In this document: positions 2,368 through 22,643 of the stretch, in pieces
How positions within the stretch are numbered: the first letter of the stretch is position 1
Layout of the letters: each line of letters begins with the position of its first letter
Made by a program: the position numbers and the translations under genes
The notes under the pieces: model-generated
Seen by the model: only the letters and a program-made list of their open reading frames with translations
Databases searched by the model: none
What the model was told of the DNA's origin: nothing
Virus record (IMG/VR): IMGVR_UViG_3300037704_000023
Location: 1 to 25,345 of that record
DNA: 25,345 nt
Strand: one strand, 5' to 3'
DNA from: a virus
Taxonomy: Duplodnaviria > Caudoviricetes

Positions 2368-3174
2368 TCAGCGGTTGTACTGCTCGGCGAGGTACTCGTC
2401 GTAGGCAGCCGGGTTATCCAGGAATGCCTTGGTGATCAGCTGCTCCTTGGAGGTGTCCCCCTTGGAGATGGACTCACTGATCTTTGCCTCCACGGACTGG
2501 AAGACATCCGAGTTGGAGCCAGCGCCGGACTTGCCGACCTCCTCGAAGAGGTCGCCCGCAGCAGAGGCGCTGTCCAGGGCCTTGGCCAGGACCTCGCAGT
2601 CCGCACGGTCCAGCGCCTCGGCGGCACGCTTGAGGACCGGGCCGAGAACCTCGGGGGCGATGCCCACCGTGTAGTTCTTGGCGACCTCGGTGTACTCGCG
2701 GTCCAGACGGAGCTGACGCTCGCTCTCGGCGGCTGCCTGAGCCTGCTTGGCGATCTCCTCGTACTCGCCCAGACGGTTGAACGCCTTGGCGATCACCTCG
2801 TCCCGGTCGGAGTCGGTGAGCGCCTTGCTCAGCTCCTCGCGGAGGTCGAAGACCTCGTCGTCGTCGGTCTCGTGGTTCTTCTGGATGACGAAGGGGTTCG
2901 CGTTCTTGCCGACCGTGGCCAGCTCGCGCTCGTCCGCTTCCTCCTCGACCTCCAGGGTGAACGCATCACCCTGAGCGTCGTACACCACTTCGCCCGGCTC
3001 CAGCGAGTCCATCTCGACAGGGTTACCCGTCGAGTCGAAGTACTCGTCCATCGTGTTCTCCTCCTCGCCGTGCCGCTTGGCGATAACGGTTCGTGCGTAC
3101 TGGTTGGCTCCCTTGTCGACAAGGGAGATCTCGTCGAACTCCATGTCGAGAAGAGCATTGACCTTGCGGGCCAT
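2368..3174 (-). CDS. Capsid scaffolding protein with N-terminal EISLVDKGAN protease-type strand
   Basis: 268 aa, acidic and helical, upstream of decoration/capsid; many hydrophobic-x-K sites; probable second in-frame start at 3051. Confidence 0.75.
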   Translation of the reverse strand: MARKVNALLDMEFDEISLVDKGANQYARTVIAKRHGEEENTMDEYFDSTGNPVEMDSLEPGEVVYDAQGDAFTLEVEEEADERELATVGKNANPFVIQKNHETDDDEVFDLREELSKALTDSDRDEVIAKAFNRLGEYEEIAKQAQAAAESERQLRLDREYTEVAKNYTVGIAPEVLGPVLKRAAEALDRADCEVLAKALDSASAAGDLFEEVGKSGAGSNSDVFQSVEAKISESISKGDTSKEQLITKAFLDNPAAYDEYLAEQYNR

Positions 3175-3215
3175 CTGCCTACCTCGTTCCTAGTCTCACG
3201 GTGCTTGCAACACCC

Positions 3216-4604
3216 TTACTTCAGCGGAAGCTGCTTGTACGGTCGCCCACCCTTGCGGGAGTGCTGCTTGATCTTCTTTCCTGCCACCAGACCACCAGCG
3301 CCAGCAGCGCCCAGAGCCAGCCCCTTGGCACCGGTCCTGGCCACTGCCTTGGCACCCTGCTTGGCTGCCTTGCCGGTCATGGAGTCCATGCCCTGGACCA
3401 GCCCCTTGCCCTTCTTGCCAGCCTCGAAGAGCTTGAGACCACCAAGAGCACCGAGAGCACCACCACCAGCAGTGGAAGCGGTCGAGTAGCCTTCCAGCCG
3501 CTTCATCCGCTTCCGCTCCGGGTCGTACGCCTTCGCCACGCCAGGCTTCGGGGGCTTGGAGACGGTGGGCATCTTGGGCTGGCTGGCGGTGGGCTTGGGG
3601 GCAGTGGCAGGCTTCGCACCAGGGGTCGCCACCACAGGCGGAGTGATGAGTGACTTCAGCGGACGCATGGACGGCTGCTGCTTGCCCTCGCGCTTCTGGC
3701 CCTTCTGCGGCGCGCTGGACATCGGCATCAGTGCCTTGGCGAACGGTGAGCTGGCCACGTCCGGTGACAGCGCCTTCTTCACCTTGCGCGGCTCGTAGTT
3801 GCCAGCAGCGCGGTTCTTCCGGTGGCCCTTGTCCGCACCAGCGACGATCCCGGTATACACACCGGTCTGTGCGCCACCGACAGCACCCACGCCAGCGGCA
3901 GTACGGGTGTTCTGACTCGTGAGGCTGGACTTGGCCGAGCGCATGGCGTACTTGCGCCCGTAGCCACCGCCCTTGCCCTTGCCGCCCTTGATGGCCTTAG
4001 CACTGCCACGGGCGGCCTTCCAGGCAGCACCATGGGTCTTGGCATTGAGTACCGCAGCAGTACCGCCGAGCGCAGCAGCACCGAGCGCAGCACCGCCCAC
4101 GGTGTGCTGGGCCACCCCCTTGTACGTCTCCTTGAGGTTGGTCTTCATGGCTTCTTTGCGGCGCTTCGGCTTCACCGTCGCGCCGACCAGGTTGTCCTTG
4201 GCGCGGTCACCCTTGGAGATGTCGAACGGGTTGCTGGTGTCCATCTTGGCGACTCGCTTCTTCTTCTGCTTGACCGGACGCATTGCACGCGCCTTCTTGG
4301 ACTCCTGGGACTGGATGGCGGCGAAGTTGTACCCGCCGATGCCACCGACACCAGCAGACGCCGTAGTCAGACCAGTCGCTGCATCGCCTGCTCGCTTCGG
4401 CGCACTGGCGATGCGGTTACCCATCTTCACGCTGGCACCGCGCTTCATGGCTGCGCCACCGAGCTTCCGGGCAGCCTTACCGGCCCCGGGAGTCTTGGCA
4501 GTGGCGGCACCGAGCGCAGAGATGCCCAGGGTGGCACCAGCGCTGCTGATGTAGCTGTGCGCGCGCTTGTGACCCTGCAGCCTCTCGTCAGACCAGGTGG
4601 CCAT
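3216..4604 (-). CDS. Basic Gly/Ala-rich putative internal virion polyprotein
   Basis: 462 aa, very Lys/Arg-rich with six GxxxG-type hydrophobic segments; lies between protease and scaffold. Confidence 0.7.
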   Translation of the reverse strand: MATWSDERLQGHKRAHSYISSAGATLGISALGAATAKTPGAGKAARKLGGAAMKRGASVKMGNRIASAPKRAGDAATGLTTASAGVGGIGGYNFAAIQSQESKKARAMRPVKQKKKRVAKMDTSNPFDISKGDRAKDNLVGATVKPKRRKEAMKTNLKETYKGVAQHTVGGAALGAAALGGTAAVLNAKTHGAAWKAARGSAKAIKGGKGKGGGYGRKYAMRSAKSSLTSQNTRTAAGVGAVGGAQTGVYTGIVAGADKGHRKNRAAGNYEPRKVKKALSPDVASSPFAKALMPMSSAPQKGQKREGKQQPSMRPLKSLITPPVVATPGAKPATAPKPTASQPKMPTVSKPPKPGVAKAYDPERKRMKRLEGYSTASTAGGGALGALGGLKLFEAGKKGKGLVQGMDSMTGKAAKQGAKAVARTGAKGLALGAAGAGGLVAGKKIKQHSRKGGRPYKQLPLK

Positions 4605-4605
4605 G

Positions 4606-4977
4606 TCAGCTCTTCTTTCGCTTCATGCCCTTGATCGCGCCGACCTGGACGTTGCGGTGCGCGCCGATACCAGCGCCAGCACCACCGCCAGCGGCAGTAC
4701 CCAGGAAGGTACCGGCCTTCATCCCGGCCGGACCACTACGCGCACCAACCGCACTACCCAGAGCAGCGCCCAGGCCAGCACCGACCGCAGAGCCACCGCC
4801 AGCACGAAGCACAGCGCCGGTCTTGCGGCCCTTCTTCCCCTTCACGGCAGCGTGAATACCAGACCCCGGCCAACCGAGCGTTGCACCCAGCGCAGTACTC
4901 GCTGCGACGTGCCCGCGCTTCTTCTTGTCGGCCTTGCTGATGTCGCCATGCTCTACGCCCCAGACGCTGGTGCTCAT
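4606..4977 (-). CDS. Basic glycine-zipper protein with N-terminal SVWGVEHG tag
   Basis: Start revised to ATG 4977, which overlaps the protease stop (ATGA coupling); 123 aa MSTSVWGVEHGDISKADKKKRG... Confidence 0.75.
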   Translation of the reverse strand: MSTSVWGVEHGDISKADKKKRGHVAASTALGATLGWPGSGIHAAVKGKKGRKTGAVLRAGGGSAVGAGLGAALGSAVGARSGPAGMKAGTFLGTAAGGGAGAGIGAHRNVQVGAIKGMKRKKS

Positions 4978-5909
4978 GCGGGGATCTCCATCTCCTGTCG
5001 GCGGCCGGAGCCGTGAACGCTGAACATCGGCCGCTTGCCGTCCTTGACGAGCTGCCAGGTCTCGTCGTCGTGCACCTGCATCCCGACCCACCAGCCAGTG
5101 GGGGAGTCAGCCGGGATGCCGAGAGCTTCCTTCTTCTCCGGCGTGATGACCACGGACTCGATCAGGTCGGCCACGTGCTTGGGCTCGTCGCCCACACGCA
5201 CATGCATGTCCCCGCCCTTGCGGGACTTGGAGATGTACTTGTGTGCGGCCTTCTCGATCTCCTCGATCGTGGTGTAGTCCCCCTGGAGGTCCACCACCGG
5301 CTGACCGTCCATCTCGGTGATCGAGGCCCAGCCATAGACCTGGCGCTTGTCCTCGATGGCCTTGGAGACAGTAGCCGAGATGGTGAAGTCCTTGCCCTCC
5401 TTCTTGCGGGCGATCTTCACCTTCGGGGACTTCTCCTCGACCTTGCGCAGGACCTTGACCTTGGCCTCGGCCACCGACTTGGTCACGTCGGTCTTCTTCT
5501 TGGACTTGTCCGCGATGGACTTGGTGGACGCAGCATCAGCCGCCACATTGAAGACCTGACCGCCCACCACAGCGCCAGCTACCGGACCTGCGAACTTGGG
5601 GTTCTTCAGTGCCTTGCCCGCACGACCAGCGGCGCGACCCAGCGGCGTGGCCTTCAGCTTGGAAGGCTTGACGCGCTTGAGCCCCTTGCCTGCGGGCTTG
5701 GCGAACTTGGCCTTGGCGTCTCGGGCCAGAGCAGGGAGCGTCAGCGCACCGAACCCGGCGGAGGCGGCGTTGGCGGCGACCAGGCCCTTGTCGGTGTTGG
5801 ACAGGCCCTCGGTCTTCTTCTTCTCGGCCTTGGCGATCTCCCAGGCCCCGTCACCGTACAGGGCCTTGGCGACCGTCTCGAAGTCGGTTACGGGGACAAG
5901 GCGTCTCAT
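4974..5909 (-). CDS. Prohead maturation protease (XkdF-like serine peptidase) with basic N-terminal extension
   Basis: C-terminal domain KRQVYGWAS...VDLQGD...EIEKAAHKY...GDMH...GWWVGMQVHDDETWQLVKDGKRPMFSVHG matches the XkdF-type pattern (His in DMH, Ser in FSVHG). Start uncertain (ATG 5909 or GTG 5927). Confidence 0.8.
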   Translation of the reverse strand: MRRLVPVTDFETVAKALYGDGAWEIAKAEKKKTEGLSNTDKGLVAANAASAGFGALTLPALARDAKAKFAKPAGKGLKRVKPSKLKATPLGRAAGRAGKALKNPKFAGPVAGAVVGGQVFNVAADAASTKSIADKSKKKTDVTKSVAEAKVKVLRKVEEKSPKVKIARKKEGKDFTISATVSKAIEDKRQVYGWASITEMDGQPVVDLQGDYTTIEEIEKAAHKYISKSRKGGDMHVRVGDEPKHVADLIESVVITPEKKEALGIPADSPTGWWVGMQVHDDETWQLVKDGKRPMFSVHGSGRRQEMEIPA

Positions 5910-6072
5910 GCCCTCATGATCCCCCACGGCTCCATACCCCTGGCACTACGTGCGACTGTAGTTCGGACAGGAGCACTGGTTATGGTCACCCGGCAGTACT
6001 CCGGCATCTACGACACTTGGGCACGTATGGCGGGTTGTTGCGGCTAGCCTGCAAGAGACGACGGAGGAGCAC

Positions 6073-6366
6073 ATGTTCGACGTGCTGGGTGTACCGGTCA
6101 ACATCTTCGAGTTGTCGGGGTGGGGACTCCTGGTGCTGTTGGTCGTAACCGGCAGGCTACGCACCTCGCAGAACGTCAAGGAAATACGAGAAGATCGAGA
6201 CGCTCGCCTAGCCGAGGCGGCAGAGTGGAAGACAGCGTGGCAGCAGTCAGAGGAGACCAAAGCTCAGCTCGTCTTGCAGGTCTCGCAACTCCTGGCCCTG
6301 GGTCAGGTCTCAGCGCACATCCTCAAGACACTGCCGCCACAAGAAGAGAAGTCGGAGACTTCCTGA
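6073..6366 (+). CDS. Membrane protein, lysis-cassette type (one TM plus coiled coil)
   Basis: GGAGGAG RBS; WGLLVLLVVTGRL hydrophobic segment followed by helical region with WKTAW; resembles actinophage lysis-cassette membrane proteins. Confidence 0.7.
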   Translation: MFDVLGVPVNIFELSGWGLLVLLVVTGRLRTSQNVKEIREDRDARLAEAAEWKTAWQQSEETKAQLVLQVSQLLALGQVSAHILKTLPPQEEKSETS

Positions 6367-6578
6367 TGGTGCGGATCTTCAAGCGGAAGCAGAGTCTGTC
6401 CGAGCCGACGGCTGCCGAGCGCTTGAAGGAAGCGCGCGCAGCGCGCGAGGAGACAGAGATGGATCTCCAGAGGGTCAAGCGGCAGTGGCCTGTTGTACAG
6501 AACACGGCCGAAGAGCTGAACATCCAGTTGGAGAAGAACCACTTCGCGGAGCGCTTCCGCACAGCGCTAGGAGGCTGA
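6366..6578 (+). CDS. Small lysis-cassette-associated protein with NHFAE motif
   Basis: Start revised to ATG 6366 (TGATG coupling); 70 aa ending LEKNHFAERFRTALGG. Confidence 0.7.
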   Translation: MVRIFKRKQSLSEPTAAERLKEARAAREETEMDLQRVKRQWPVVQNTAEELNIQLEKNHFAERFRTALGG

Positions 6579-6579
6579 G

Positions 6580-6909
6580 TTGCTTTACTCGATCATGCTG
6601 TACACGATCGCCATCTTGCCGATGCTCGCCTTCGTCGTGCTGTACATACGCGAGTGGCCGCACATCCGGCACACGGCCGAGTCCTACCAGTTGCTGCTGT
6701 TCATCTCGCTGCTCCTGCTGATCTCCGTCAACGGGCTGCTGGTCAACGTCTTCGGCATGGACCTAGACCTGGCGCGCATCTTCAGTCGGGTACTGTCCAT
6801 CCTCGCTGGATTCACCCTGTGGTACTTCACCTATGCGTTGCTGCGCTACCAAGTGATCCCTCGATACAAGCGAGACAAGCTGCGCAAGCGGATGAAGGAT
6901 CAGGGGTAG
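6580..6909 (+). CDS. Putative holin (three TM segments, basic C-terminus)
   Basis: TTG start with AGGAGG RBS; three hydrophobic stretches; tail RYKRDKLRKRMKDQG; convergent 10-nt overlap with the MuF gene. Confidence 0.6.
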   Translation: MLYSIMLYTIAILPMLAFVVLYIREWPHIRHTAESYQLLLFISLLLLISVNGLLVNVFGMDLDLARIFSRVLSILAGFTLWYFTYALLRYQVIPRYKRDKLRKRMKDQG

Positions 6910-8942
6910 AGATCGTCCGGGTCGATGTCGAACATGTGGAACGGCATCCCCACACCCTCGTCCCGCGCGCCCCACTGGGACATCGAGCCGATGTCGCTGG
7001 ACAGCACCTTGTAGGCACCAGGGTTGGTGATGGCCCCGCCGTACTGGTCGTCGTCGAAGGTGTCCACGTTGATCTTGTTGGTCCGGCCCACGACCGGCGT
7101 CAGGCTCTCCACCATCATGGGGATCGCCAGCGCCTGAGCGATGTCGTGGGCCGAGACCGACACCTGCGCCACCGGACGCCCGCTCTCCCGGTCGTAGGCA
7201 GACAGCAGCAGGTGCTCGGAGTGCTCCGGGGTGATCCCGTGCACGGTCTCGATGGTGGCCACGTCGTAGGCGTCGTAGTCCACGTACACGGTGTGCCGAC
7301 CAATCTGCGCCTCCAGCACCGGAGAGCCTGCGGTCTCGCTGAACGTGGACCGGTCCGCGAAGTCCTCGAACAGGTCGTCGTTCTCCAGCGCGTTGTTCCA
7401 GTACTCGTTGACCGCTTGCTGCAGGGTGGAGATCCCTAGCCCCTCGACGCCAGCCGTGTAGAACGGCTGGTACTCATCGATGAACACCGTGTCCTGGTCA
7501 GGGTCCCACTCGTACGGAGCCATGATCACGTAGATCGGCTGACCGTCCGGAGTGTTCATCCAGACATCGTTGGCCGAGGCTGCTTCCAGCTCGGTCTTGG
7601 GTGCCTGGAAGGTGGGGTTGGCCTTGGCCTTGATCTTGGCCCGGATCTTCGCCTTGGCGTTGTGCTCGACGATCTGCGCTCGCTCCGGTGTCATCACCGC
7701 AGTCTTCGCCTCAGCCTGGACCTGAGCCTTGTCCCCCACGACGGCCTTCGCCTTCACGGGTGAAGCCTTCTCGCGTACCTGAGCCTTCACAGGTGAGGCC
7801 TTGGCATCGACGCGAGCCTTCGGTGGCGTGACCGGCACGAGTCGCGGTGTCGTCGGCGCGTCCAGGAGATCACTCGCCTCCGCCAGCACACGCGCGACCC
7901 GGGGATCGGAGTAGTCCACTTCACGGGTCTGCACCTTGCTGCGACGGGACTCCGTCTCGGAGAAGCGCCCCTTGCGGTCGCGGTCGTAGCGGTCCTGGCC
8001 ACGCGCCTTGGAGATCACGCCCCAGGCTGACTTGGTCAGCTCCAGCTCCGGGCGCTCGATGACGATGTCCCCGACGTAGGTGACCAGCCGGATGTCGCAC
8101 CGGCAGTTGGTGTGCGCGATGGGCGAGGAGATGACCTGCCCGTTGGGCATGGTGAAGTCTTCGCTCACCGGCACCCGGGCCTCGTGCAGCGGACCACACA
8201 GCGGGCACACCCGCTCGTCATCGGCAGTGACCCACTCCTTCTCGGCCGTGATCTCCAGCCGACCGGTCTGGGAGAGGTAGGCCCAGTACATCGCCTTGGC
8301 GGTGTTCTTGGTGATGAACGCCTCGGACTCCCCGATGGCCTTGGCCCGGCTGATGATGGCAGCGGCAATCATTCGATCGATCCGGCCGACGATCGTCTTG
8401 GGCACGTCGCGTGAGGTGAACGCCGTGGGGCGGTCGCTCATCCACACGTTGACCAGAGCCTTCATGGTGCGCGGTGCCACACCGAACGCATCGACAACCC
8501 GCTCGATGGCGACACGCGCGACAACCTTGCGATTCATCTGCGCGTTGATGCCCTCCACCATGGACTGGGTCGAGACCTGGTGGATGTTGTCCCCGAGCTG
8601 TACGGCGTAGCGCTCTGCGTTCTTCCGCACCCACGTGAGATCCGGTGCGGAGTTGCCAGCCTCGTGCAGCCCTATCACCAGACCGGTAGCCAGGGCAGGA
8701 GCAGCCACAGCAGCCCACCTGGGCAGGAACAGCATGGCAATGCGCTGGGACAGCTCCTGCATCGCTGCAGGGCCGTCACGGCGCACAGACGCCTCTCGCA
8801 GCCTGCGCCGGAAGATCATCCGGTACAGCCCGAAGGCAGCCCCCAGAGCGAGGGCTACCTCCGTCAGGCTGGTCGAACGCTCTCCAGCCGCTGTGATCTC
8901 CGCAGCCAGCCGCTCCTCGGTGTCGTTCAGTTCCTCATCCAT
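6900..8942 (-). CDS. MuF-like minor head protein with long C-terminal extension
   Basis: KEWVTADDERVCPLCGPLH...PIAHTNCRC is the MuF (SPP1 gp7-like) signature; followed by about 390 aa extension (tags, Lys/Ala linker, acidic domain). Confidence 0.85.
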   Translation of the reverse strand: MDEELNDTEERLAAEITAAGERSTSLTEVALALGAAFGLYRMIFRRRLREASVRRDGPAAMQELSQRIAMLFLPRWAAVAAPALATGLVIGLHEAGNSAPDLTWVRKNAERYAVQLGDNIHQVSTQSMVEGINAQMNRKVVARVAIERVVDAFGVAPRTMKALVNVWMSDRPTAFTSRDVPKTIVGRIDRMIAAAIISRAKAIGESEAFITKNTAKAMYWAYLSQTGRLEITAEKEWVTADDERVCPLCGPLHEARVPVSEDFTMPNGQVISSPIAHTNCRCDIRLVTYVGDIVIERPELELTKSAWGVISKARGQDRYDRDRKGRFSETESRRSKVQTREVDYSDPRVARVLAEASDLLDAPTTPRLVPVTPPKARVDAKASPVKAQVREKASPVKAKAVVGDKAQVQAEAKTAVMTPERAQIVEHNAKAKIRAKIKAKANPTFQAPKTELEAASANDVWMNTPDGQPIYVIMAPYEWDPDQDTVFIDEYQPFYTAGVEGLGISTLQQAVNEYWNNALENDDLFEDFADRSTFSETAGSPVLEAQIGRHTVYVDYDAYDVATIETVHGITPEHSEHLLLSAYDRESGRPVAQVSVSAHDIAQALAIPMMVESLTPVVGRTNKINVDTFDDDQYGGAITNPGAYKVLSSDIGSMSQWGARDEGVGMPFHMFDIDPDDLYP

Positions 8943-11900
8943 CAGCGGCTCGGACGCCAGTTGTCAGACCCGAAGATGGACTCGATGGCACTGCGGGCGA
9001 ACTGCCCCAGCTCTCCAGCCTGGTCGGACCCCACATAGACATCATTGGCCAGCTCCTCGGCTCGATCGATGTCCCCGTTGCGTACTGCGATGGCCACGGA
9101 ACGCAGACCACTGGTGACGGGGTTGTCCGGCCCGTCCACTCCAGCGATGGCCTGGGCTGCATGGTTGAGCGCCTCGACGCCGGTACGGCGCTCGGAGTCA
9201 TCGTCCAGGTTGCGGCGCGGCCAGCGGTTGGACGGCTGGACGGGCTGCGGAGCGGGACGAGGCTGGAGCTGCTGCACGCGCTCAGCGGCACCCATGCCGA
9301 CACCCTGAGCCTGGAGCGTCTGAGGAGAAGCCATGCCCCCAGTCTCCGGCATGGACGTGCCCAGTGCACGTAGCCGCTCGATGTTCTCCGCCATCCCGGC
9401 CAGGGAATCAGCCTGCTGGTTCACCAGCCGCTCGTCACCCTTGGTGTGCTGGAAGGCCCGGAAGCGGTTGCCCACCCATGCAGCAGGCAGGTCCAGCCGG
9501 GTGCGCGCCTCGGTGAGAGAGTCGATGAAGCCCTGCTCCTCACCCCGCTGCGCGTGCTGGCTGGCCCGGCCCAGAGCAGCAGCAGCCTGGCCCAGAGCGG
9601 TGTCCTCCACGTCCGGACCGACCGCCACCCCGGAGTTGGCCAGGGCGTTGTTCACCCGCTGACGCTCGTTGTCCTTGGCGGTGGCGTCCGCAGCGGGCCG
9701 GTAGGCAGCCTCGGCGAACTCACGCGGGGAGGACGCGAAGAACCCCAGGTGCTTGCTCCGGTCGAAGGCATCCCCGCCGTACTGTCCGGAGTTGACCCGG
9801 AAGCGCTCCAGGAGCTGGGTGCCCCGGGTCTTGGCCGCGTCCGTGCGGAACACGCTGATGACCTGGCTCAGCTCGGTGACCAGTGCCTCCCGGTCGGTGG
9901 GGTTCTCCCAGATCTCCTCGGGCTTGCGAGCGCCGCTCTGCACGGAGTTGAGCATGGGGTACACCCGCGCGGCCTCCTCGGTGCTGAAGTCCACCTCGTC
10001 GTCCGCCAGCTTCACCAGGTCCACGGTGGCGTCCCGCGCCTGCTGGGTGCGCTCCACCCGTGCGGCCGACTCGGCCACTGCCTGCTGGGTGTTTGCCGGA
10101 CGGGCTGCGGTAGCCCCACCCCCACCACCGGTGGTGCTCTCACCAGCGACTTCACCCATCATGTCGTCGCGACGCCGCGTCTGCCCGCGCGTGGGGTTGT
10201 TCTCCCAGTTGCTGAAGTTGGTGAACGCAGCCGGGGTCTTGCCGGTGGTCTCCCCGCCCTGGGTGTACGTGCCCGCGCCAGCGACGTGCCGGTCGTAGTA
10301 GCCCTCCAGCACCTCCTCCGGACGGTTGTACCGAGGCGCGACGTAGCCCCGGTCCGCCTCGCGGGTGAACCGCTGCATGAGCCCGTTGGGCGAGTCGGTG
10401 CGCTCACCCGCAGCGTTCAGCGCCTCCTTGCGGTGCATGAAGGAGACCGAGTCGATGTAGTACGGGTACTGCTCGCGCAGCGCCTCCAGGGACGCCGCGT
10501 AGCCTTCGCCGTCGAGCTGGTAGAAGCGCGAGGTCTTGGTCTCCATGGCCTGGTCGATCAGGTCGGCCCGGATGCGGTTGTACTCCTTGCGCCCCCGGTC
10601 GGTGCCCATCTCAGCACCGCCACGTGCCTTGGCGTCGATGGCCTCCAGCTCACCCGTAGTCAGCTGAGGGGTCTCCTTGTAGTCCTTGATCCGACGCTGG
10701 AACTCCGCCTGACGCTCAGCCTGCGTGGACCACCCGGTCATCTCCTCCTCGACCTCGGAGAAGATCTCGGCCCGTGCCTCGCGGCTGATCGGCTCCCGCT
10801 CGACCTGACCGTTCTTGATGGTGTCCAGCGTCTTGGCGTAGCGGTCCACCATCTGCGCGGCCTTGTCGTTGAACCGGCGCGCGCCCCGGAAGTCGTCCGA
10901 GAAGTTGACCGTGAACACACCGGAGTTGGACACCACGGTGACCCGTCGTGCTCCGGAGACCAGACCGGTGTACACATCCTCGGTGGTCAGCCCACCCTTG
11001 GAGCGGGTCCGAACGTACTCCCCGCCCTTGAGGTTGTTCAGGTTCTTGAGGTTGAACGGCAGGTAGTGGTCGTCCGCGAAGCCCACGGCCTGCACCTTGA
11101 CCTGTCCGTCAGCCCCGACGATCACGCCCTCCGAGGGCGGGATACGCCCGGACTTGCGCTGGATCTCGCTCAGGCGAAGGCTGGGCAGCCGGTTGAACAG
11201 GTAGCCCACCGAGGCACCAGAGGTGCGCAGCATCTTCTCCTCGGCCGGGAGAGCCTCCCCACCACCGTCCCGCCGGAGCTGAGTCTGGCGTGCGGTGAAC
11301 AGCTCGGCGTCCACCTTCCGCTCGGTGCCCCGGTAGCGGTAGGCCGTCTTGCGCATGTGCGGGCCGACGACCTTCTCCGCCTCGGGACCGTAGCGGCCGA
11401 CGAACTCCCCGAAGGCGGCAGCGGCCTGGGTCTTCGAGCCCGGAGCGGAGACGGTGCCCAGGAGCTGAGAGCCCGCCTCGATGCGGCGGTAGGTACGCGC
11501 GTTCGTCCCTGTGGGGTCGTTGCTCGCGTCGTTCCACTGGTCCGCGAAGGCAGAACCACCACGCTGCACACCCTGTACCCCGCGCTGTGCCCCACGCCCT
11601 GCGGTCCCACCGGCCAGGGTGGAGACCACGTCGAACGAGGCGTTGCCCGCCATCGAGCCCGGACGCTCGTAGCGGATCGCGACGACATCCTGGCGCTTGG
11701 GGTTCCAGCCCTTGATGGAGTCCGGCGAGCCGCCCTCGATGGTGGCCAGCGCCTGACGCCCGGTGGAGCGATCCTGCACCACGGCCTGCGGGTTGCGCCC
11801 GCCCGAGGTGACCATGCGGTCCATGGCGTCCGCCAGCGCACCGTACTGCTGCTGGTAGGCACTGCGCTCCTTGGAGCTGAGCCTGTCCGTCTTGCGGTAG

Positions 11901-12286
11901 GTGCCGGAGCGCCGGGCTACGAAGGCAGCGCTCTGGATGCCCTGATCCCGCTCCTTGGCCTTGGGCATGGCCCGCTTGGTGCGGTCCGTGCGCACCCGCG
12001 ACTCCACCGTGGAGAACCGGCCGGACTTGTCGCGGGTGTACTCGTCGTCACCGAATGCCTTGACGATGGGCACCAGGCGCGGGTCGGCGGAGGCGAGACG
12101 CTTGTGGATGCGCTGCACCAGCCCGTCCACCGTACGCCGGTTGCCAGCCAGATCTTCGTGCAGCATGCCGTAGGCCACGTTGGTGATGAAGGACTGCGCA
12201 GATGCGTCGTCCATCTTCATCACCAGGTCGTAGGCCCAGGCTGCGGCGCGGGTGTTGAGTTCCATGTCTACCTCCGCGTCCATCAT
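8942..12286 (-). CDS. Large putative internal/ejected virion protein with degenerate JAB/MPN-like segment
   Basis: 1114 aa, coupled to MuF by TGATG; shares a 24-aa motif with MuF. Gene is well supported, function is inference; exact start uncertain. Confidence 0.7.
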   Translation of the reverse strand: MMDAEVDMELNTRAAAWAYDLVMKMDDASAQSFITNVAYGMLHEDLAGNRRTVDGLVQRIHKRLASADPRLVPIVKAFGDDEYTRDKSGRFSTVESRVRTDRTKRAMPKAKERDQGIQSAAFVARRSGTYRKTDRLSSKERSAYQQQYGALADAMDRMVTSGGRNPQAVVQDRSTGRQALATIEGGSPDSIKGWNPKRQDVVAIRYERPGSMAGNASFDVVSTLAGGTAGRGAQRGVQGVQRGGSAFADQWNDASNDPTGTNARTYRRIEAGSQLLGTVSAPGSKTQAAAAFGEFVGRYGPEAEKVVGPHMRKTAYRYRGTERKVDAELFTARQTQLRRDGGGEALPAEEKMLRTSGASVGYLFNRLPSLRLSEIQRKSGRIPPSEGVIVGADGQVKVQAVGFADDHYLPFNLKNLNNLKGGEYVRTRSKGGLTTEDVYTGLVSGARRVTVVSNSGVFTVNFSDDFRGARRFNDKAAQMVDRYAKTLDTIKNGQVEREPISREARAEIFSEVEEEMTGWSTQAERQAEFQRRIKDYKETPQLTTGELEAIDAKARGGAEMGTDRGRKEYNRIRADLIDQAMETKTSRFYQLDGEGYAASLEALREQYPYYIDSVSFMHRKEALNAAGERTDSPNGLMQRFTREADRGYVAPRYNRPEEVLEGYYDRHVAGAGTYTQGGETTGKTPAAFTNFSNWENNPTRGQTRRRDDMMGEVAGESTTGGGGGATAARPANTQQAVAESAARVERTQQARDATVDLVKLADDEVDFSTEEAARVYPMLNSVQSGARKPEEIWENPTDREALVTELSQVISVFRTDAAKTRGTQLLERFRVNSGQYGGDAFDRSKHLGFFASSPREFAEAAYRPAADATAKDNERQRVNNALANSGVAVGPDVEDTALGQAAAALGRASQHAQRGEEQGFIDSLTEARTRLDLPAAWVGNRFRAFQHTKGDERLVNQQADSLAGMAENIERLRALGTSMPETGGMASPQTLQAQGVGMGAAERVQQLQPRPAPQPVQPSNRWPRRNLDDDSERRTGVEALNHAAQAIAGVDGPDNPVTSGLRSVAIAVRNGDIDRAEELANDVYVGSDQAGELGQFARSAIESIFGSDNWRPSR

Positions 12287-12292
12287 CTCGTG

Positions 12293-15450: not shown

Positions 15451-15456
15451 GGGAAC

Positions 15457-15807: not shown

Positions 15808-15851
15808 GTCGTACTCCTTGCTCGTGGTCTGGCTTCACGCTATCGGTGTCG

Positions 15852-16268: not shown

Positions 16269-16966
16269 CACTTCACTCCTGAGTAGCGACCGTGGAAGGT
16301 GCGAGCGGCACGAATGGTCAGCGGACCGATGATGCCATCGATCTCGCCGGTATACAGCGCGCCGATGATCGAGGAGGCCAGGATCCTCTGGAACCACATG
16401 ACTCGCTTGGAGTTGTAGCCACGTCTGCTGATCGAGGCCATGAGCTTGTCCCAGCCGTTCTTGGTGCCCTGGCCCCACCAGCCGTCCAGAGCCCCGTCGT
16501 ACAGCCGCGCCTTCTTCATCCAGTACTGCAGCAGTACGACCTGACGTGAACCGTCCTTGGCCCGGTTGGCGTACTCCCAGTGCCAGGGCTCGTCCTTCTG
16601 GAAGCCCGGGGCTCCAGGAGTGGCCCAGTTGGGGTTGTCCATGCCGAAGTTCTTGGCGTTGATCTGCATCCACTGGTGCTCGCGCGAGGAGCGCACGTTG
16701 ATGCCGGAGCCCAGGTCGAAGGCCAGACCCCAGCCGTGGTTGCTCGTGCCAGGCGTTGCAGCCAGGTAGCCCTTGGCAGCCTTCACTGCCACCTGCTGCG
16801 CATATGTGCGGTAGCCGTCAGTGATATGCGGGTAGTAGCCGAACTCGCGCTGGAACCTGGCACCGAGCGCGGTGAGCGCGCGTGCCGCATCCTTGGTCCC
16901 TCTGTGCTTGCTCCAACCGACCTGCGTGAGCAGCAGGTCCGGGAGCCGTCCGTTCAGGATTGCCAT
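16268..16966 (-). CDS. Endolysin: M15 (VanY-like) peptidase with C-terminal PG-binding-like repeats
   Basis: YRTYAQQ, ATPGTSNHGWGLAFD and EPWHWEY motifs; two DG..G..T repeats (LDGWWGQGT, IDGIIGPLT); ATG 16966 with AAGGAG RBS; 232 aa. Confidence 0.9.
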   Translation of the reverse strand: MAILNGRLPDLLLTQVGWSKHRGTKDAARALTALGARFQREFGYYPHITDGYRTYAQQVAVKAAKGYLAATPGTSNHGWGLAFDLGSGINVRSSREHQWMQINAKNFGMDNPNWATPGAPGFQKDEPWHWEYANRAKDGSRQVVLLQYWMKKARLYDGALDGWWGQGTKNGWDKLMASISRRGYNSKRVMWFQRILASSIIGALYTGEIDGIIGPLTIRAARTFHGRYSGVK

Positions 16967-17019
16967 GGGGAGTCTCCTTCTCTCGTCTCCATCGTGCGTG
17001 TGTGCGCAAGACCCAGACA

Positions 17020-17071
17020 GCAAGAAGCCCGAGACTCCATGGACAGATGGATGACGTCTCGGGCTTCTTGC
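17020..17071. terminator. Long inverted repeat, probable terminator upstream of the endolysin
   Basis: Perfect 16-bp arms GCAAGAAGCCCGAGAC / GTCTCGGGCTTCTTGC around 20 nt containing an inner TCCAT/ATGGA pair. Confidence 0.65.
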
Positions 17072-17104
17072 GTTGTCCCCAGGGGATGAGGAAGCAGTTT
17101 CAGC

Positions 17105-17323
17105 CTACATCCCGGTGACGGCCTGCGCCTTCTTCATCTTGCGCTTGCGTGTCTTGCCCCTGTTGCCCAGGACATGCACGGCTGAGGGGTCAGGGGACAT
17201 CTTGTGCACCACGCCCCACGCGCTCTTGGCCACCTTGCCGCCGTACTTCTTGTCCCACTTGGCGGCGATCTCCGGGTGCTTGGCGTGCATGAACTTGCGC
17301 TGCTTCTCGCTCTTGTAGGGCAT
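17105..17323 (-). CDS. Small basic protein carrying the VAKSAWGVVHK tag
   Basis: Start revised to ATG 17323 with GAGGAG RBS; 72 aa MPYKSEKQRKFMHAKHPEIAAKW... Confidence 0.8.
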   Translation of the reverse strand: MPYKSEKQRKFMHAKHPEIAAKWDKKYGGKVAKSAWGVVHKMSPDPSAVHVLGNRGKTRKRKMKKAQAVTGM

Positions 17324-17336
17324 GGTGCTCCTCAGA

Positions 17337-17504
17337 TCAGGGCTGCGGGTTGCCCTCGGCGTCACGCTCGTGCGGCGCGTAGCCAGGAGCGTGGTGGTTC
17401 GGGAACGTCGAACGGTTCACGCTGACCTTGCCCTCCAGCTCAGCCAGCTTGGCCTTCAGCTCGTCGTTCTCGGACTTCAGCTCGTCCTTGGTCTGGTCAG
17501 TCAT
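17337..17504 (-). CDS. 55-aa coiled-coil microprotein
   Basis: Below ORF-track cutoff; GGAGG RBS; MTDQTKDELKSENDELKAKLAELEGKVSVNRSTFPNHHAPGYAPHERDAEGNPQP. Confidence 0.75.
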   Translation of the reverse strand: MTDQTKDELKSENDELKAKLAELEGKVSVNRSTFPNHHAPGYAPHERDAEGNPQP

Positions 17505-17514
17505 CGTTTCCTCC

Positions 17515-17523
17515 TGGTAGATT
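17515..17523 (+). promoter_or_regulatory. Candidate extended -10 promoter for the tRNA
   Basis: TGGTAGATT (TGnTAnnnT) ends 6 nt before the tRNA 5' end. Confidence 0.4.
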
Positions 17524-17529
17524 CTTGAC

Positions 17530-17605
17530 TGCGGCGTGGGGGAGTTCGGCCGTCCCCACCTGGCTCATAACCTGGAGATCGCGGGTTCAAATCCCGTCGC
17601 CGCAA
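17530..17605 (+). tRNA. tRNA with CAT anticodon (Met, initiator-like), no encoded CCA
   Basis: Cloverleaf: acceptor TGCGGCG/CGCCGCA, D stem GGGG/CCCC, anticodon arm CCTGG-CTCATAA-CCTGG, T arm GCGGG-TTCAAAT-CCCGT, discriminator A. Confidence 0.9.
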
Positions 17606-17606
17606 C

Positions 17607-17684
17607 TCAGACCATGCTGATGATCCAGATGACGAGTGCAACACACCCCAGGATGCCAAAGATGGTCCATACGGTGTTGTTCAT
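17607..17684 (-). CDS. 25-aa single-TM membrane peptide
   Basis: AGGAGGAG RBS; MNNTVWTIFGILGCVALVIWIISMV; fills the gap between the 36-aa ORF and the tRNA. Confidence 0.6.
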   Translation of the reverse strand: MNNTVWTIFGILGCVALVIWIISMV

Positions 17685-17692
17685 CTCTCCTC

Positions 17693-17803
17693 CTACGGTT
17701 CGAGCGCTTCGACTCGGTCGGTCAGGTCGTTGATCGCATCGATCAGCTCGTTGATCTTGAGGGCGAGGTCGCGCTCACCGTAGTTGTTGACCTTGTCAAC
17801 CAT
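17693..17803 (-). CDS. 36-aa microprotein paralogous to the N-terminus of the 278-aa fibre-like protein
   Basis: GAGGAGGAG RBS; MVDKVNNYGERDLALKINELIDAINDLTDRVEALEP. Confidence 0.75.
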   Translation of the reverse strand: MVDKVNNYGERDLALKINELIDAINDLTDRVEALEP

Positions 17804-17814
17804 GTCTCTCCTCC

Positions 17815-18681
17815 TCAGACGACCGGGTCGCCCAATAGTTCACGGACGTTCGCGCACATGTACCCGATGACATCCTCTGCGAGCAAGATGTCTCGCTCCT
17901 CCAGGCTGTCCACTACAGCGCCCACGATCGGCTTGCCGGTGGACTTCATGTCGATCCACATCTGCTCCGTGGCATCGGCATCCACCCCGATCCAGGTCCA
18001 GTGCGCTGCATCAAGCAGCGCCTGTGCAGGGTCAGCCAGGTAGTCATCGGTCCAGAAGTGCCCCCAGGACATGTAGCCGTGCTCAGTGGCCCAGTCAGCC
18101 AGGGTGATGCCTCCACCAGAGGCGTACTTCATGATCACCTTGTCCTGTGGCCTGGGGAACAGGCTCTCCAGAACCGGCAGGACAGCATCACGCGCAGTAG
18201 GGCCAGCCTGGTACTTGAGGTCCAGGAAGAACACGTGTGAGCCTGCATACGGCTCGATCAGCTCCTCCAGGCGCTCGTAGGGCTGCGGACCGAAGGCAGG
18301 GTCAGCACCGGATGCCGGGCTGCACAGGTGCTCCTGCACCTGCGCCCAGGTGAGCGTGGTGGGGTTGATGTCCACCCCTGAGGTACGCAGCAGGGTCTGG
18401 TCGTGCAGCCCGAACCACACACCATCGCTGGTCTTGGCTACGGAGATCTCCAGAGCCTGCACCCCACGCGTGACGCACTCCACCAGACCACGCTTGGAGT
18501 ACTCGGCCCAGTCCTGCGAACCCAGCCGGTGCGCCACCACGAACTCTGGAGTGGCGCGCAGCTCGTAGACATTCCGCGCACCGTACGGCACCGTACCCGC
18601 GTGCATGGGGCGCTCGCTGTCCCCGTCCCACAGGGAGAACGCCCCCTCGCGCTCCTGTGTGCCGTCCCAGAGCGAGATCAT
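17815..18681 (-). CDS. Glycerophosphodiester phosphodiesterase (GDPD) family protein
   Basis: VVAHRLGS, LEISVAKTSDGVWFGLHDQTLLRT and FFLDLK motifs; ATGA-coupled to the upstream fibre-like gene. Confidence 0.85.
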   Translation of the reverse strand: MISLWDGTQEREGAFSLWDGDSERPMHAGTVPYGARNVYELRATPEFVVAHRLGSQDWAEYSKRGLVECVTRGVQALEISVAKTSDGVWFGLHDQTLLRTSGVDINPTTLTWAQVQEHLCSPASGADPAFGPQPYERLEELIEPYAGSHVFFLDLKYQAGPTARDAVLPVLESLFPRPQDKVIMKYASGGGITLADWATEHGYMSWGHFWTDDYLADPAQALLDAAHWTWIGVDADATEQMWIDMKSTGKPIVGAVVDSLEERDILLAEDVIGYMCANVRELLGDPVV

Positions 18682-19514
18682 GCCGTGCCGCCGATGGCCA
18701 GCACCTCAGAGCCCATTGAGGCCACAGAGGATGGCGAGGTGACCGTGAACGAGGCCAGGTCGGTAGCAGTGAGCTTGAAGCGTACGTTGAGCCACGTACG
18801 CGTGACCCCGGTGTCGTCCGCGCTGGTCACGAAGGCGAACTGCTCCATGTCGTTGCTGAAGGCCAGCGGGTCGGGGTCGTTCGGGGACGAGGAGTTGCCT
18901 TGCGTCATGGAGATGAGCAGCGTGCCCCCGACCCCGGTCAGAGCAGGCACGGTGTACACGGTGGTGACTCGCGAGCCCGTGGTGCCGTTGGCCGCCACTG
19001 GAGTAGTGAGGTTCGCTCCCGTGACGCGGAACATGCAGGTGGCCACGCGGTTGCTCTCCCCGCTGGTGAATACTGCATCGCCCGTGGGCGGCGTACCAGT
19101 GACGGAGAGGCCGTAGTACGCCCCGGCCCGGAAGTCACCGGTGACCGCCTGCTGCTGCAGCTTCACCCAGCCAGCGGGCGGGGTGATCGTAGCGGACTGC
19201 GAGTTGGTGACGATGCACGCCACCAGCAGGTCACCGGTCTCGATGCCCTCGGGGTAGGGGATCGCCCAGCTGTTGCTGGAGGTCGAGCGGTAGGTCGTCA
19301 GGCTCTCGGCGACCAGAACCAGAGGCGCAGGCGGGGGATCGGTTCGCACGATGAACGTTCCCGCCGTGGGCGCAGGGTCTGTGGGTACTGGCTCACCGGT
19401 CTCCAGTGCCAGCACTCCAGCGCCACCGACGCCGCCGGAGTTGATCGTCTCGATCATCTCGTTGATCTTCAGGCGCAGTGCGCTGTCCCCGTAGCCAGGG
19501 ATGATCTCGATCAT
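18678..19514 (-). CDS. Fibre/spike-like structural protein
   Basis: 278 aa; short N-terminal helix, Gly/Pro linker, then P.GIETGDLLVA...TITPPAGW beta-rich domain typical of phage fibre tips. Confidence 0.6.
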   Translation of the reverse strand: MIEIIPGYGDSALRLKINEMIETINSGGVGGAGVLALETGEPVPTDPAPTAGTFIVRTDPPPAPLVLVAESLTTYRSTSSNSWAIPYPEGIETGDLLVACIVTNSQSATITPPAGWVKLQQQAVTGDFRAGAYYGLSVTGTPPTGDAVFTSGESNRVATCMFRVTGANLTTPVAANGTTGSRVTTVYTVPALTGVGGTLLISMTQGNSSSPNDPDPLAFSNDMEQFAFVTSADDTGVTRTWLNVRFKLTATDLASFTVTSPSSVASMGSEVLAIGGTA

Positions 19515-19792
19515 CAGCCATCCTCGTCCTCAGTGAGAAGCTCATCCACCCGGACGCTGTTCTTGATCTTCACGTAGGTGTCCACGTACGCCTCGCCCTT
19601 GTCTCCGTTGTAGGTGACCTCGTAGTAGCGACCGTCCGGGATGGTCGTGCTCAGCAGGGCTTTCCAGTTCTGAAGGGTCTTGCTGAACCACACGACGTAC
19701 ACCTCGAAGTCGTCGCTCTCATCCGCCCGCTCCATGACCTCTTGCGTGACCAGGCGAGCAGCCTTGCTCATGTACGGCTCGAAGATGTCCAT
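19514..19792 (-). CDS. DUF6275-like phage protein
   Basis: VVWFSKTLQNWKALLSTTIPDGRYYEVTYNGDKGEAYVDTY matches this family as recalled; stop/start coupled on both sides. Confidence 0.8.
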   Translation of the reverse strand: MDIFEPYMSKAARLVTQEVMERADESDDFEVYVVWFSKTLQNWKALLSTTIPDGRYYEVTYNGDKGEAYVDTYVKIKNSVRVDELLTEDEDG

Positions 19793-20748
19793 CAGGCGAA
19801 CTTCCCGTTCCTGTCGCGGCGGTACTTGCGGTCTACGTGCTTGCTCCCAGCGTAGGCACCACCAGCACCTGCCCCGGCGACCCCGTAGCGCACCAGACGC
19901 CTGCTCCCTGAGGCGTTGGGCTTGCCAGGGGTAGGCACGTAGGGGATGCCGGACTTGCTCGACTCCTTGCGCGCGCTCTGCCCCCGGCTGCGGAAGATCT
20001 TGTCCTGGGTGCGGCGGAACTCCCTGCTGCCCCGGTCCTGACTGAACCGGTTGCCTGCGGTGTGCGATACCGTGCCACCGGTCTTCCCAGCGGCCAGCTC
20101 ACGTGCGGTGTTCTGCTTGTACGTGCCACTGAGCGTATCCACCCGGGCCTCCTCGCGCTTCAGCGAGCGAGAGCGTGAGCCGATCTGTGAGAGCCGCCAG
20201 GAGGACTTGTTGTCCGCGTGCATGACCTCGTGCCGCATGGTGGCCGGGTTCATCTGTCTGTCGCCCGCGACGATCTCGGTCTTGCCGCCCTTCTTGGACC
20301 CGGTACGGATCGGGTGCGCGTTGGGGTAGTTGGGGACCACGTGCACGGGGTACTTCTTCCCGCTCTTGGCCTGGAAGGCCGTGACGCGAGATGCCTCGCG
20401 CTTGAGTCCGCCCAGTGCTCCAGCGATCTCCTGGTGCGTCTCGTTCACCACATCGGTGCGCGCGTCCCCGCGCCTGCGGTACACACCGGAACGGTTGAAC
20501 GTACTGATCTTGGTGTCCCCCGGCCCCTCGGGGTAGGACATGTCCTTCTTCTTGGGGGCGTCCTCCACCATCTTCCTGCGGAAGCCCACATCGCTCCTGG
20601 CGGGGTGCCAGCGGTCGTCGTTCTTCATCTTCGCGCGTGCAGCCTTGAGCCGCCTGGCCCCCAGCTTCACCGCAGGCACGAACTTGTTCTGGCCCACCAG
20701 TGACTTCGAGACCGGCGTCCCGTGCTCGACACCCCAGGCACTCTCCAT
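19792..20748 (-). CDS. Basic putative internal virion protein with HExxH zincin-like motif
   Basis: Coupled to the portal stop (ATG 20748 or GTG 20751); N-terminal SAWGVEHG, RHEVMH...REEARVD, C-terminal YRRDRNGKFA. Confidence 0.7.
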   Translation of the reverse strand: MESAWGVEHGTPVSKSLVGQNKFVPAVKLGARRLKAARAKMKNDDRWHPARSDVGFRRKMVEDAPKKKDMSYPEGPGDTKISTFNRSGVYRRRGDARTDVVNETHQEIAGALGGLKREASRVTAFQAKSGKKYPVHVVPNYPNAHPIRTGSKKGGKTEIVAGDRQMNPATMRHEVMHADNKSSWRLSQIGSRSRSLKREEARVDTLSGTYKQNTARELAAGKTGGTVSHTAGNRFSQDRGSREFRRTQDKIFRSRGQSARKESSKSGIPYVPTPGKPNASGSRRLVRYGVAGAGAGGAYAGSKHVDRKYRRDRNGKFA

Positions 20749-22643
20749 CACTTCCCCCTGGGCTTCTTCGCAGCGGGCTTGCTGCGCCCTGCGGGCTTCT
20801 TCGGCATCGGCTTGGCGTCGGGCTTGGCTTTCGCCTTGGCCCGCTCGATGCGGATGGAGCGCTTCTCGTCCGCGTCCTTGGACTTGTCCTCACGGTCCTT
20901 CAGGGCGAGCTGACGCTTGAAGTCCTTCTCCTTGCCCTGGTCCTCCCGGTCCTTGATGGCCACCTTGCGCTGGACATCGTGGTCCTTGGCCTCCTCGTCA
21001 GCAGCGGCAGCCTGCGGGTCGAAGCCCTTGCCCTGCTGCTCCATGGCCATCTCGCGCTCCTTGACCGCAGCCACGTCGGGATCCTGCTCCGCCATCGCCT
21101 GGCCCTTGTAGGTGGCGAGCTGCTCGTTGGCAGCCATCTCCTCGTTGGGCTGCTCGGAAGCCAGCATGGCCTGCTCGGGCGTGTAGCCACGACCCATCAT
21201 CTCGGCCTTCTGCTGCATGCCCAGGAACTGCATCTGGGTGTCCGCGTAGCCCATGACCGCGTGCTGCTGGCTCTGCTGACGACGAATCTCCAGCAGCTCG
21301 TCCGGCATGTCGGGCAGGCGCGCAGCCTTGCGCAGGAACTCCTCCAGGTCCGCATCCGGGAACCACTCCATGCCCAGCCCACCCATGGAGGTCATGAACG
21401 AGGACAGCTCGGTGAGGTTGGGCGGGTCGATGTCGTTGGGCACGATCTTGGGCAGCTCTTCCAGCCGCTCACCGTTCAGCTCGAACAGGCGAGGGATGGC
21501 GTGCCGGTTGAAGGTGTCCGCGACCATCTGCGCGATGTGGTTCATGGCCGAGCGGAAGATGCCGCTCTTGTCCGTGTGCAGGGCATAGGAGCCCTGGCCC
21601 TCATGCCCCACCAGGATGAAGTCCGCGAGCGCCGACATCAGGATGCGCTGCTCGTAGCGGCCGATCAGGGCGTTGGTGTCGAAGGTGCGGGTACCAGAGG
21701 CGGAGAGCAGCTCGAACTCGAACAGCGGCTGCTTGGTGTTGCGGTCGTACTGGTTGGGCAGCACCAGGCCCTCGTGCTCGTCCCGCCGCACGTTGGACAC
21801 CATCTTCTTGAACGCCTCGAACACCTTGCGCTCACGCGAACCAGGAGCGGCATCCATGTACGAGGCAGGGATCTTGGCCACCGGCATACCAGCCAGGTCG
21901 CGCTCCACGCCGATGGCCTCGAACTCCTCCAGGCGCTTCTTGAAGAACCAGGGGCGGTACGCCGTACGGAGCAGGGAGACACCCTCCGGGTTGCCCTTGG
22001 CGGTGTTGGTGCGGAACAGCAGGGAGCGCTCGATGGGGATGAGCTTGCTCCCGTAGTCCGGGGGAGCAAGCTGCACCATGGCCTTGATCCCGCCGTCCTT
22101 GTCGAAGACCCAGCGGTGCATGGTCTCCTGGGAGCGGATGACGATCTTGCGCCATCCGATGCGCCCGTCGTTGTACTTCGACTTCTTCTTCGGGTCACGC
22201 TCCCAGGGACCGATGCGCTTCTTGTACACGATCTCGTGCCAGCTCCACCCGTACACCAGGCAGGTGAGGATGTCGCTGAGCATGTCGCCCCACGTGTGGG
22301 ACATGTCGTCCATGCAGGACTCGACGAAGTCCTTCGCCTCGGTGGCCTCTGGGGTGTTGTCTGTCGCCTCCACCCGGAAGTTCACCTGGCGCAGCAGCTC
22401 GGTGATGGCGAACAGCAGCGACCCCACGATGGGGTCGTTGAGCGACATCTCCTGGTAGACCTTGATGGCCTTGCGCCCGCGAAGGGCTGGGAGGAACTCC
22501 TCGTCCACGTACCCTGCGGCACGCTTGAGACCGGTAGAACCGATCTCCGTCATGGGGGAACTGGGAGGCTTGGTCTCCCAGTCGGCCACGCTCACCTCGT
22601 CGTAGCGGGTGATGTCGCTCAGGGACAGCATGGGGTTGGGCAT
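20748..22643 (-). CDS. Portal protein (DUF935/Mu gp29-like) with charged C-terminal tail
   Basis: 631 aa; EIGSTGL...EEFLPALRG...YQEM..NDP, YGWSWHEIVYK, GNPEGVSLLRTAYRPWFFK, GSYAL motifs; GGAGGAGG RBS. Confidence 0.88.
   Translation of the reverse strand: MPNPMLSLSDITRYDEVSVADWETKPPSSPMTEIGSTGLKRAAGYVDEEFLPALRGRKAIKVYQEMSLNDPIVGSLLFAITELLRQVNFRVEATDNTPEATEAKDFVESCMDDMSHTWGDMLSDILTCLVYGWSWHEIVYKKRIGPWERDPKKKSKYNDGRIGWRKIVIRSQETMHRWVFDKDGGIKAMVQLAPPDYGSKLIPIERSLLFRTNTAKGNPEGVSLLRTAYRPWFFKKRLEEFEAIGVERDLAGMPVAKIPASYMDAAPGSRERKVFEAFKKMVSNVRRDEHEGLVLPNQYDRNTKQPLFEFELLSASGTRTFDTNALIGRYEQRILMSALADFILVGHEGQGSYALHTDKSGIFRSAMNHIAQMVADTFNRHAIPRLFELNGERLEELPKIVPNDIDPPNLTELSSFMTSMGGLGMEWFPDADLEEFLRKAARLPDMPDELLEIRRQQSQQHAVMGYADTQMQFLGMQQKAEMMGRGYTPEQAMLASEQPNEEMAANEQLATYKGQAMAEQDPDVAAVKEREMAMEQQGKGFDPQAAAADEEAKDHDVQRKVAIKDREDQGKEKDFKRQLALKDREDKSKDADEKRSIRIERAKAKAKPDAKPMPKKPAGRSKPAAKKPRGK

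Follow-up and report, generated by a model that had tools for sequence, protein, structure and literature searches.

A candidate cleavable prohead-loading tag on unrelated head-region proteins of uncultured soil and sediment phages

The head-gene region and its four copies of the motif

The DNA analysed here is a 25-kb virus record (IMG/VR IMGVR_UViG_3300037704_000023; 25,345 nucleotides, about 64% GC), and the whole stretch is called the window below. Its minus strand encodes the portal, a 1114-aa protein, a MuF head morphogenesis protein (PF04233, E 1.4e-6, just under the cutoff), an XkdF-type prohead protease, scaffold, cement and the major capsid protein. Our subject is a pentapeptide, S[AV]WGV, that recurs among these genes and may be a tag for loading proteins into the prohead; all features are on the minus strand unless stated otherwise. 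A six-frame scan found exactly four copies, all on the minus strand and all in real genes: those of a 123-aa basic Gly/Ala-rich protein (4606..4977, motif at 4968-4954), MuF (6900..8942, motif at 8030-8016), a 72-aa basic mini-polyprotein (17105..17323, motif at 17224-17210) and a 318-aa basic protein (19792..20748, motif at 20742-20728). The copies are spread over 15.8 kb, each adjoins a hydrophobic-x-Lys site, and the four proteins have nothing in common by BLASTP except the tag. The sequence-only reading, an earlier account made from the letters of the window, had reported the motif in four non-homologous open reading frames beside hydrophobic-x-Lys, and both the copies and the flanks it quoted are exact. 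Its count of about eight tagged proteins was too high, because the tag is present in four window proteins and no more. The bracketed peptides it listed in the protease, a 462-aa protein and the scaffold are present, but they are different peptides, of the LYGDG and NPF types.

The tag is N-terminal in the 318-aa protein, where residues 1-15 (20704..20748) end at a predicted V-S-K|S cut and the start overlaps the portal stop codon. The 123-aa protein has the same arrangement, with residues 1-15 (4933..4977), a predicted I-S-K|A cut and a start that overlaps the protease stop codon. After these predicted cuts, the net charges would be +39 and +17, respectively. The other two tags are internal. 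SAWGVVHK lies between V-A-K| and V-H-K| in the 72-aa protein (17201..17224), a layout also seen in the related locus L164, and L-T-K|SAWGVISK| in MuF (8007..8039) is followed by an RDxxGRF motif (7982-7962). Two strain variants fall inside tags (4948 and 20716), and both are synonymous, as judged from codons read from the sequence.

The chance expectation for S[AV]WGV is 0.008 copies in the 6969 aa of the 22 minus-strand genes. Since the motif was picked post hoc and shuffling also yields shared 5-mers (some 5-mer common to at least three genes in 56 of 500 shuffles, or in 33 of 500 when at least four different letters are required), the window alone provides modest evidence. Relatives were collected with the protease, capsid and portal as queries. 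Across 160 close loci, which are redundant, S[AVP][WF]G[VI] matched 246 times on the head strand versus 10 times on the other. This strand bias makes the observation decisive, and the shared motif is confirmed as real. The corresponding counts in 78 distant XkdF loci were 14 and 17.

Anatomy, cargo and distribution of the tag in related phages

The pattern is estimated from DNA scans to occur in at least about 130 IMG/VR stretches and at least about 170 metagenome stretches. The pattern used for the anatomy was written after the first scan of relatives had been seen, and a few chance hits are included, for example in a tape-measure gene. The 277 distinct DNA contexts comprise 227 N-terminal, 38 C-terminal and 12 internal tags. 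The N-terminal consensus is M-x-S-A-[F/W]-G-[V/I]-[D/E]-H-G, with Phe commoner than Trp; the tag starts at Met+2 in 182 of 227 cases, and a ribosome site or stop-codon overlap accompanies 217 of the 227. An [IVF]xK site was found at +5 to +16 after 216 of 223 N-terminal tags versus 786 of 21500 control windows (3.7%), a nearby Lys being absent in 7 of 223. The first Lys after the tag has Ile, Val or Phe at P3 (two residues before) in 214 of 216 cases. C-terminal tags are preceded by hydrophobic-x-K in 31/31 cases versus 799/6200 controls (12.9%), and only 1/31 has a Lys after the tag. The site thus follows N-terminal tags and precedes C-terminal ones, so that, of the two parts divided by the site, the shorter one carries the tag at both termini. 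Spacing from tag to site is 5 to 12 residues, with a mode of 9-10 (139/216), and the predicted propeptides of the 223 distinct N-terminal tags are mostly 13-17 aa long and slightly acidic.

As a hold-out, 78 new metagenome matches were taken, from which 16 were dropped for having no exact motif on translation and 62 were kept. The site was present in 55 of these 62, and 54 of the 55 cargos were basic; the seven misses comprise two with near-miss sites and five apparent chance matches. Untagged virion genes are also matched by 30 of 51 held-out loci, and many of the others are shorter than 700 bases. Codon use within the tag is varied (Ser: AGY 168, TCN 109; each of the four Gly codons 54-79 times), which points to constraint at the protein level. 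An explanation of the shared stretch as a DNA-level cassette or translation-start element agrees with most copies standing at the starts of small inserted genes. This explanation was rejected on codon use and is also opposed by the 38 C-terminal copies, so that we regard it as largely refuted.

BLAST groups the 215 predicted mature cargo sequences into 124 clusters, and the number of families is at most that, because low-complexity sequences split. Cargos are net basic in 214 of 215 cases, with a median length of 99 aa and 29% Gly+Ala, and 62 of the 124 families have an uncharged Gly/Ala/Ser-rich stretch. Pfam matches were obtained for 5 of 123 cargos (GNAT, DUF6321, DUF3482 and Gly zippers). 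PHROGs matched 3 of 26 proteins, NCBIfam none above its cutoff among 14 proteins, and Atlas searches gave only leads under 0.9. The diverse cargo proposed earlier, enzymes included, is borne out as to unrelatedness, but the typical cargo is small, basic and Gly/Ala-rich and not an enzyme. In the 318-aa protein, only 1 of 29 Lys has Ile, Val or Phe at P3, and this is the tag site. The protein has an HExxH motif (20232-20218), which is present in 6/6 family members, and a C-terminal RDxxGKF motif; a zincin-fold lead from Atlas (M56/M78) consists of matches that are all below the tool's bar.

The 72-aa protein consists of an MPYKS module, the tag and a K|MxP..S.VH module. The first module (MPYKS..HA.HP.IA.KW, 17240-17323) stands at the start of 19 different proteins in relatives, which are 72-1287 aa long. 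A match of 79% over 29 aa was also obtained with a gene of Streptomyces phages, FlowerPower and Geostin among them. The second (K|MxP..S[DA][VL]H, 17171-17200) also directly follows the propeptide in many proteases of the clade. Behind a Lys site, homologs of MuF and of the 1114-aa protein, as well as some cargos, have an RDxxG[RK]F or HPRx..GRF motif, which in the window occurs at 7962-7982, 12014-12034 and 19798-19818.

The distribution of tagged genes was followed in five genomes at least 99% complete, picked for length among tag carriers, with gene calling limited to their first 80 kb. The structural strand contained all 32 pattern matches, and no match was obtained with the reversed control. 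The expectation that the tag is confined to head-region proteins agrees with these genomes, where the 31 tagged genes among 595 all belong to the virion (late) block, from terminase to head-tail connectors; two tagged genes of genome G003 stand among fibre-region genes. A charge of at least +0.08 was found for 29/31 tagged versus 27/564 other genes. Tagged genes are small insertions that vary between genomes. The core genes are untagged in all homologs: 0/91 for the capsid (window gene 920..1918, phrog_1005, E 1e-88), 0/78 for the portal (20748..22643, PF06074), 0/73 for cement, 0/74 for the scaffold and 0/75 for the protease. Tags lie near 48 of 76 capsid genes. The tag pattern is missing from 14 long loci that belong to this capsid clade; a variant tag is present in one of them. 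A quick capsid tree needs six label changes, and therefore a single origin of the tag is not established.

The carriers form a group of uncultured phages from soil and sediment. Window DNA is contained in soil and sediment sequencing runs from several studies, with no RNA run among those listed, and a contig of another study covers 4772-21000 with zero differences. The genomes of the tag carriers measure 76-83 kb and include a tape-measure tail module, and these phages are likely siphoviruses. The best identities to cultured phages are 46.6% for the capsid and about 46% for the portal, and no cultured tag carrier was found. The tag is absent from the head regions of ValentiniPuff and Ottawa and from 70 genome-bin loci, where three isolated matches look like chance. 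The nearest genome-bin contig (67%) is assigned to Microlunatus, which makes an actinobacterial host likely for the window phage.

The untagged 1114-aa protein (8942..12286) is conserved and has an I-V-K| site before its RDxxGRF motif. Pfam and PHROG gave no match for it, and NCBIfam only matches under the cutoff. The JAB metal site follows the pattern HxH..S..D. A JAB-like segment had been seen by eye only, and a JAB domain is not supported, as the aligned homologs read R[TS]R[ST]xGGxTxED and are without the metal-site histidines. The protein had also been proposed as a tagged cargo, and the tag is found in 0/74 and 0/120 homologs. Five homologs (P0008, P0029, P0041, P0047 and P0082) are fused to AAA ATPase domains (PF00004, PF17866). 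Two further features of the region are a tRNA-Met gene on the plus strand (17530-17606) within the late region, and three plus-strand genes (6073-6909; DUF7620, holin-like) that stand between the MuF and protease genes and so break up the head operon.

Protease, scaffold and the predicted lysine site

The XkdF-type protease gene (4974..5906; PF14550, E 1e-18) encodes an LYGDG propeptide (5864-5829), a basic insert, a His within 5216-5202 and a Ser within 5024-5010, the last two being invariant in 62 sequences. A PDB sequence search with the protease gave no match, and the top fold match of its model is T4 gp21 (5jbl; Z 8.2, rmsd 3.3, 118 aligned, chain residues 2-152). The gene stops 12 residues after the Ser, and no conserved acid follows it. 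A likely missing piece lies in the scaffold (2368..3174), whose residues 14-33 (3076..3135) form a DEISLVD..AN strand that ends in an invariant Lys site. This strand has invariant Asp, Glu and Ser, and it is unstructured in the model of the scaffold alone. In distant XkdF loci, the strand is at the N-terminus of the protease itself in 31 of 37 cases and starts a downstream gene in five. The protease therefore looks split, with its last strand on the scaffold N-terminus, and the enzyme would be completed on the scaffold. A fold search with the scaffold matched uncharacterised phage proteins only. Scaffold residues ~45-78 form a small conserved acidic beta domain (pLDDT 79-89), which is a candidate peptide-binding site. 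Furthermore, five related scaffolds (L085, L095, L110, L153 and L173) carry basic Gly-rich inserts flanked by Lys sites, and cargo might in this way ride along with the scaffold.

The [IVF]xK motif is concentrated where a prohead protease would act. In the window scaffold, 11 of 16 Lys have Ile, Val or Phe at P3, and the scaffolds of the five genomes hold 44 sites versus 9.9 expected (4.4-fold). There is no enrichment in 253 non-virion genes (231 vs 242 expected). Mature short cargos (93 families) have 29 sites versus 67 expected (z -5.3), and all 124 cargo families have 94 versus 152. The corresponding [IVF]xR motif is not depleted in mature short cargos (84 vs 65). Prohead proteases are known to shred the scaffold, gp22 in T4, where gp21 cleaves after L/I-x-E, as described in PMC9026906. 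One tagged cargo, L269 (8225-8818), has two modules, DUF6321 and a Cys-containing one, that are both shared with T4-like cyanophage proteins (484 records), and the record of cyanophage S-SCSM1 names its copy 'virion protein'. The border in front of the DUF6321 module reads x-x-Glu in all 5 of the cyanophage records examined for it and V-S-K in L269, so in this one cargo the module border follows the protease type.

The protease propeptide is a separate conserved motif, a helix followed by L[FY]G, and is also found in tagless lineages. In 32 of 52 sequences, an aromatic-Gly of this propeptide precedes the Lys site of the protease by 9-10 residues, which equals the modal spacing of the tag, and SAF stands directly after Lys in 31 of 68 scaffolds. 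These likenesses are a hint, suggestive only, that a core assembly signal has been co-opted for the tag. Mimicry of the protease strand of the scaffold was also considered and rejected, because the invariant Ser of the strand aligns to the Phe/Trp of the tag; GVDH does occur in the scaffold strand of Ottawa and ValentiniPuff.

Interpretation, alternatives and meaning

We hypothesize, with a probability of about 0.7, that the tag is a cleavable prohead-loading propeptide resembling the capsid-targeting sequence (CTS) of T4, placed at either end of the cargo and cut off after Lys. The SA[FW]G[VI][DE]H tag would bind some part of the prohead, be it scaffold, protease or the inner face of the capsid, so that the tagged cargo becomes enclosed in the assembling prohead. 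The protease, completed by the scaffold, would then cut at [IVF]xK, shredding the scaffold and clipping the tags, and tags and scaffold fragments would leave the head. The mature basic cargo would remain with the packaged DNA and then probably enter the host by ejection, with a role there in host defence, in membrane passage or on DNA. The sequence-only reading had proposed this core idea, a tag that loads proteins into the prohead and is removed when the XkdF-like protease cuts behind the Lys, and the patterns in relatives give it strong support, with loading and cutting as predictions from sequence. A bolder proposal, which we hold to be doubtful, is that the tag is a shortened copy of the protease propeptide and docks where that propeptide does, on a split protease which becomes whole only on the scaffold strand. 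If true, loading, protease activation and tag removal would be coupled, and any basic protein could join the injected payload through seven residues at either end.

Several observations weigh against the loading propeptide. The window MuF has an acidic C-terminal extension (net -19), and only 4 of 50 MuF homologs carry the tag. The 462-aa basic polyprotein of the window (3216..4604; six [IVF]xK joints) is untagged although relatives carry the tag, which ends 16 of 29 members of the family C-terminally (counted from the last 32 residues). One homolog of the 318-aa protein also lacks the tag although its relatives are tagged. The tag is therefore not always needed. Of the claim that MuF is a cargo, the tag on the window protein stands, but its rarity among homologs does not favour it; here the tag is probably a relic of fusion, since MuF would have its own route into the head. 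Moreover, most of the 13 tagless long loci still have basic late genes. The [IVF]xK motif is mildly enriched in 26 tail and connector genes (61 vs 46, z 2.9), and it occurs five times in the capsid protein (no enrichment) and inside the protease domain. The motif alone therefore marks no cut, and context decides.

The tag could instead be a docking (exosite) motif that speeds the Lys cut, with loading brought about by the basic or Gly-rich body or by riding on the protease. The distance between tag and site hardly ever exceeds about 12 residues, and the shared spacing of the propeptide aromatic-Gly and the SAF of the scaffolds would also be expected. Such docking is nevertheless unlikely, as the tag stands on either side of the site at variable spacing, abundant scaffold sites are without a full tag, and an N-terminal piece made only for removal has no obvious benefit. 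It is quite improbable that the tagged proteins are structural core or DNA-neutralising fillers, staying in the head or lost and not delivered. Their small size, basic charge, Gly/Ala content and scarce Pfam matches would suit fillers, but the fast turnover of up to 124 families, the occasional enzyme-like domains (GNAT, HExxH) and the uncharged Gly/Ala/Ser-rich stretches fit host-facing roles better. Direction elsewhere, to the outer capsid surface, tail or host membrane, or to a host protease during lysis, would explain tagged genes among head-tail connector and fibre genes and the membrane-like Gly-rich stretches in half of the cargos. We give it very little credence; the coupled site is enriched in scaffold and avoided by mature cargo, and therefore exposure to the prohead protease is indicated.

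Encapsulin cargo-loading peptides are short, stand at either terminus and address cargo to an HK97-fold shell in cellular compartments, and they are not removed by a protease. The tag resembles them in its length and either-end placement and differs in its predicted removal and phage setting. The HK97 protease is also reported to undergo peptide-directed encapsidation. It has a related fold, and its Lys|Ser cleavage at K103/S104 is given in PMC10275583. Unlike here, where the protease appears split between two genes, it cuts a scaffold domain fused to the capsid protein. The closest likeness is to the internal proteins IPI-III of T4, described in PMC9026906 as small, basic and divergent, with targeting propeptides of 10-19 residues removed by gp21. 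Both systems would place a short common propeptide, ending at a prohead-protease site, on unrelated small basic proteins, and T4 gp21 is the best fold match of the window protease model. On the other hand, the predicted cut is after [IVF]xK and not L/I-x-Glu, the tag is N-terminal, C-terminal or internal whereas the T4 CTSs are described there as N-terminal, and up to 124 cargo families occur in the 76-83 kb genomes of likely siphoviruses.

The packaging signal of P1 DarB is likewise a short terminal peptide and suffices for reporter loading (PMC9024508), which is only predicted for the tag. That study detected no consensus among Dar N-termini, whereas here one motif linked to a cut site is found on many proteins. 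In SPN3US and phiKZ, many head (ejection) proteins have propeptides removed by the prohead protease (PMC10052503, PMC5694885), as is predicted here, but these are mostly long (111-254 aa), with Glu specificity (AxE), and no common short tag is described in those accounts. The MuF-linked and polyvalent virion effectors are also variable domains among head genes and are thought to be injected, but they are loaded by fusion to MuF or portal, with no such short tag in the account of PMC5512222.

A full-text literature search with the tag peptide strings gave no phage paper by title or abstract, and topical searches found no description of the tag among the papers listed, supplements and subscription journals being outside the coverage of both. 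Capsid-targeting peptides have been tested in few phages, T4 (PMC9026906) and P1 (PMC9024508) in these accounts, both with enterobacterial hosts. The principle of capsid targeting is thus already known; the tag sequence, the predicted Lys site and the either-end placement differ from the T4 CTS. If the loading propeptide is real, the principle would also apply in a clade of likely siphoviruses that probably infect Actinobacteria, with a tag that can stand at either end of the cargo. More than 100 unannotated protein families would become candidate injected effectors, and a short candidate packaging signal would be open to testing. Furthermore, the apparent split of the protease suggests a way of confining proteolysis to the prohead.

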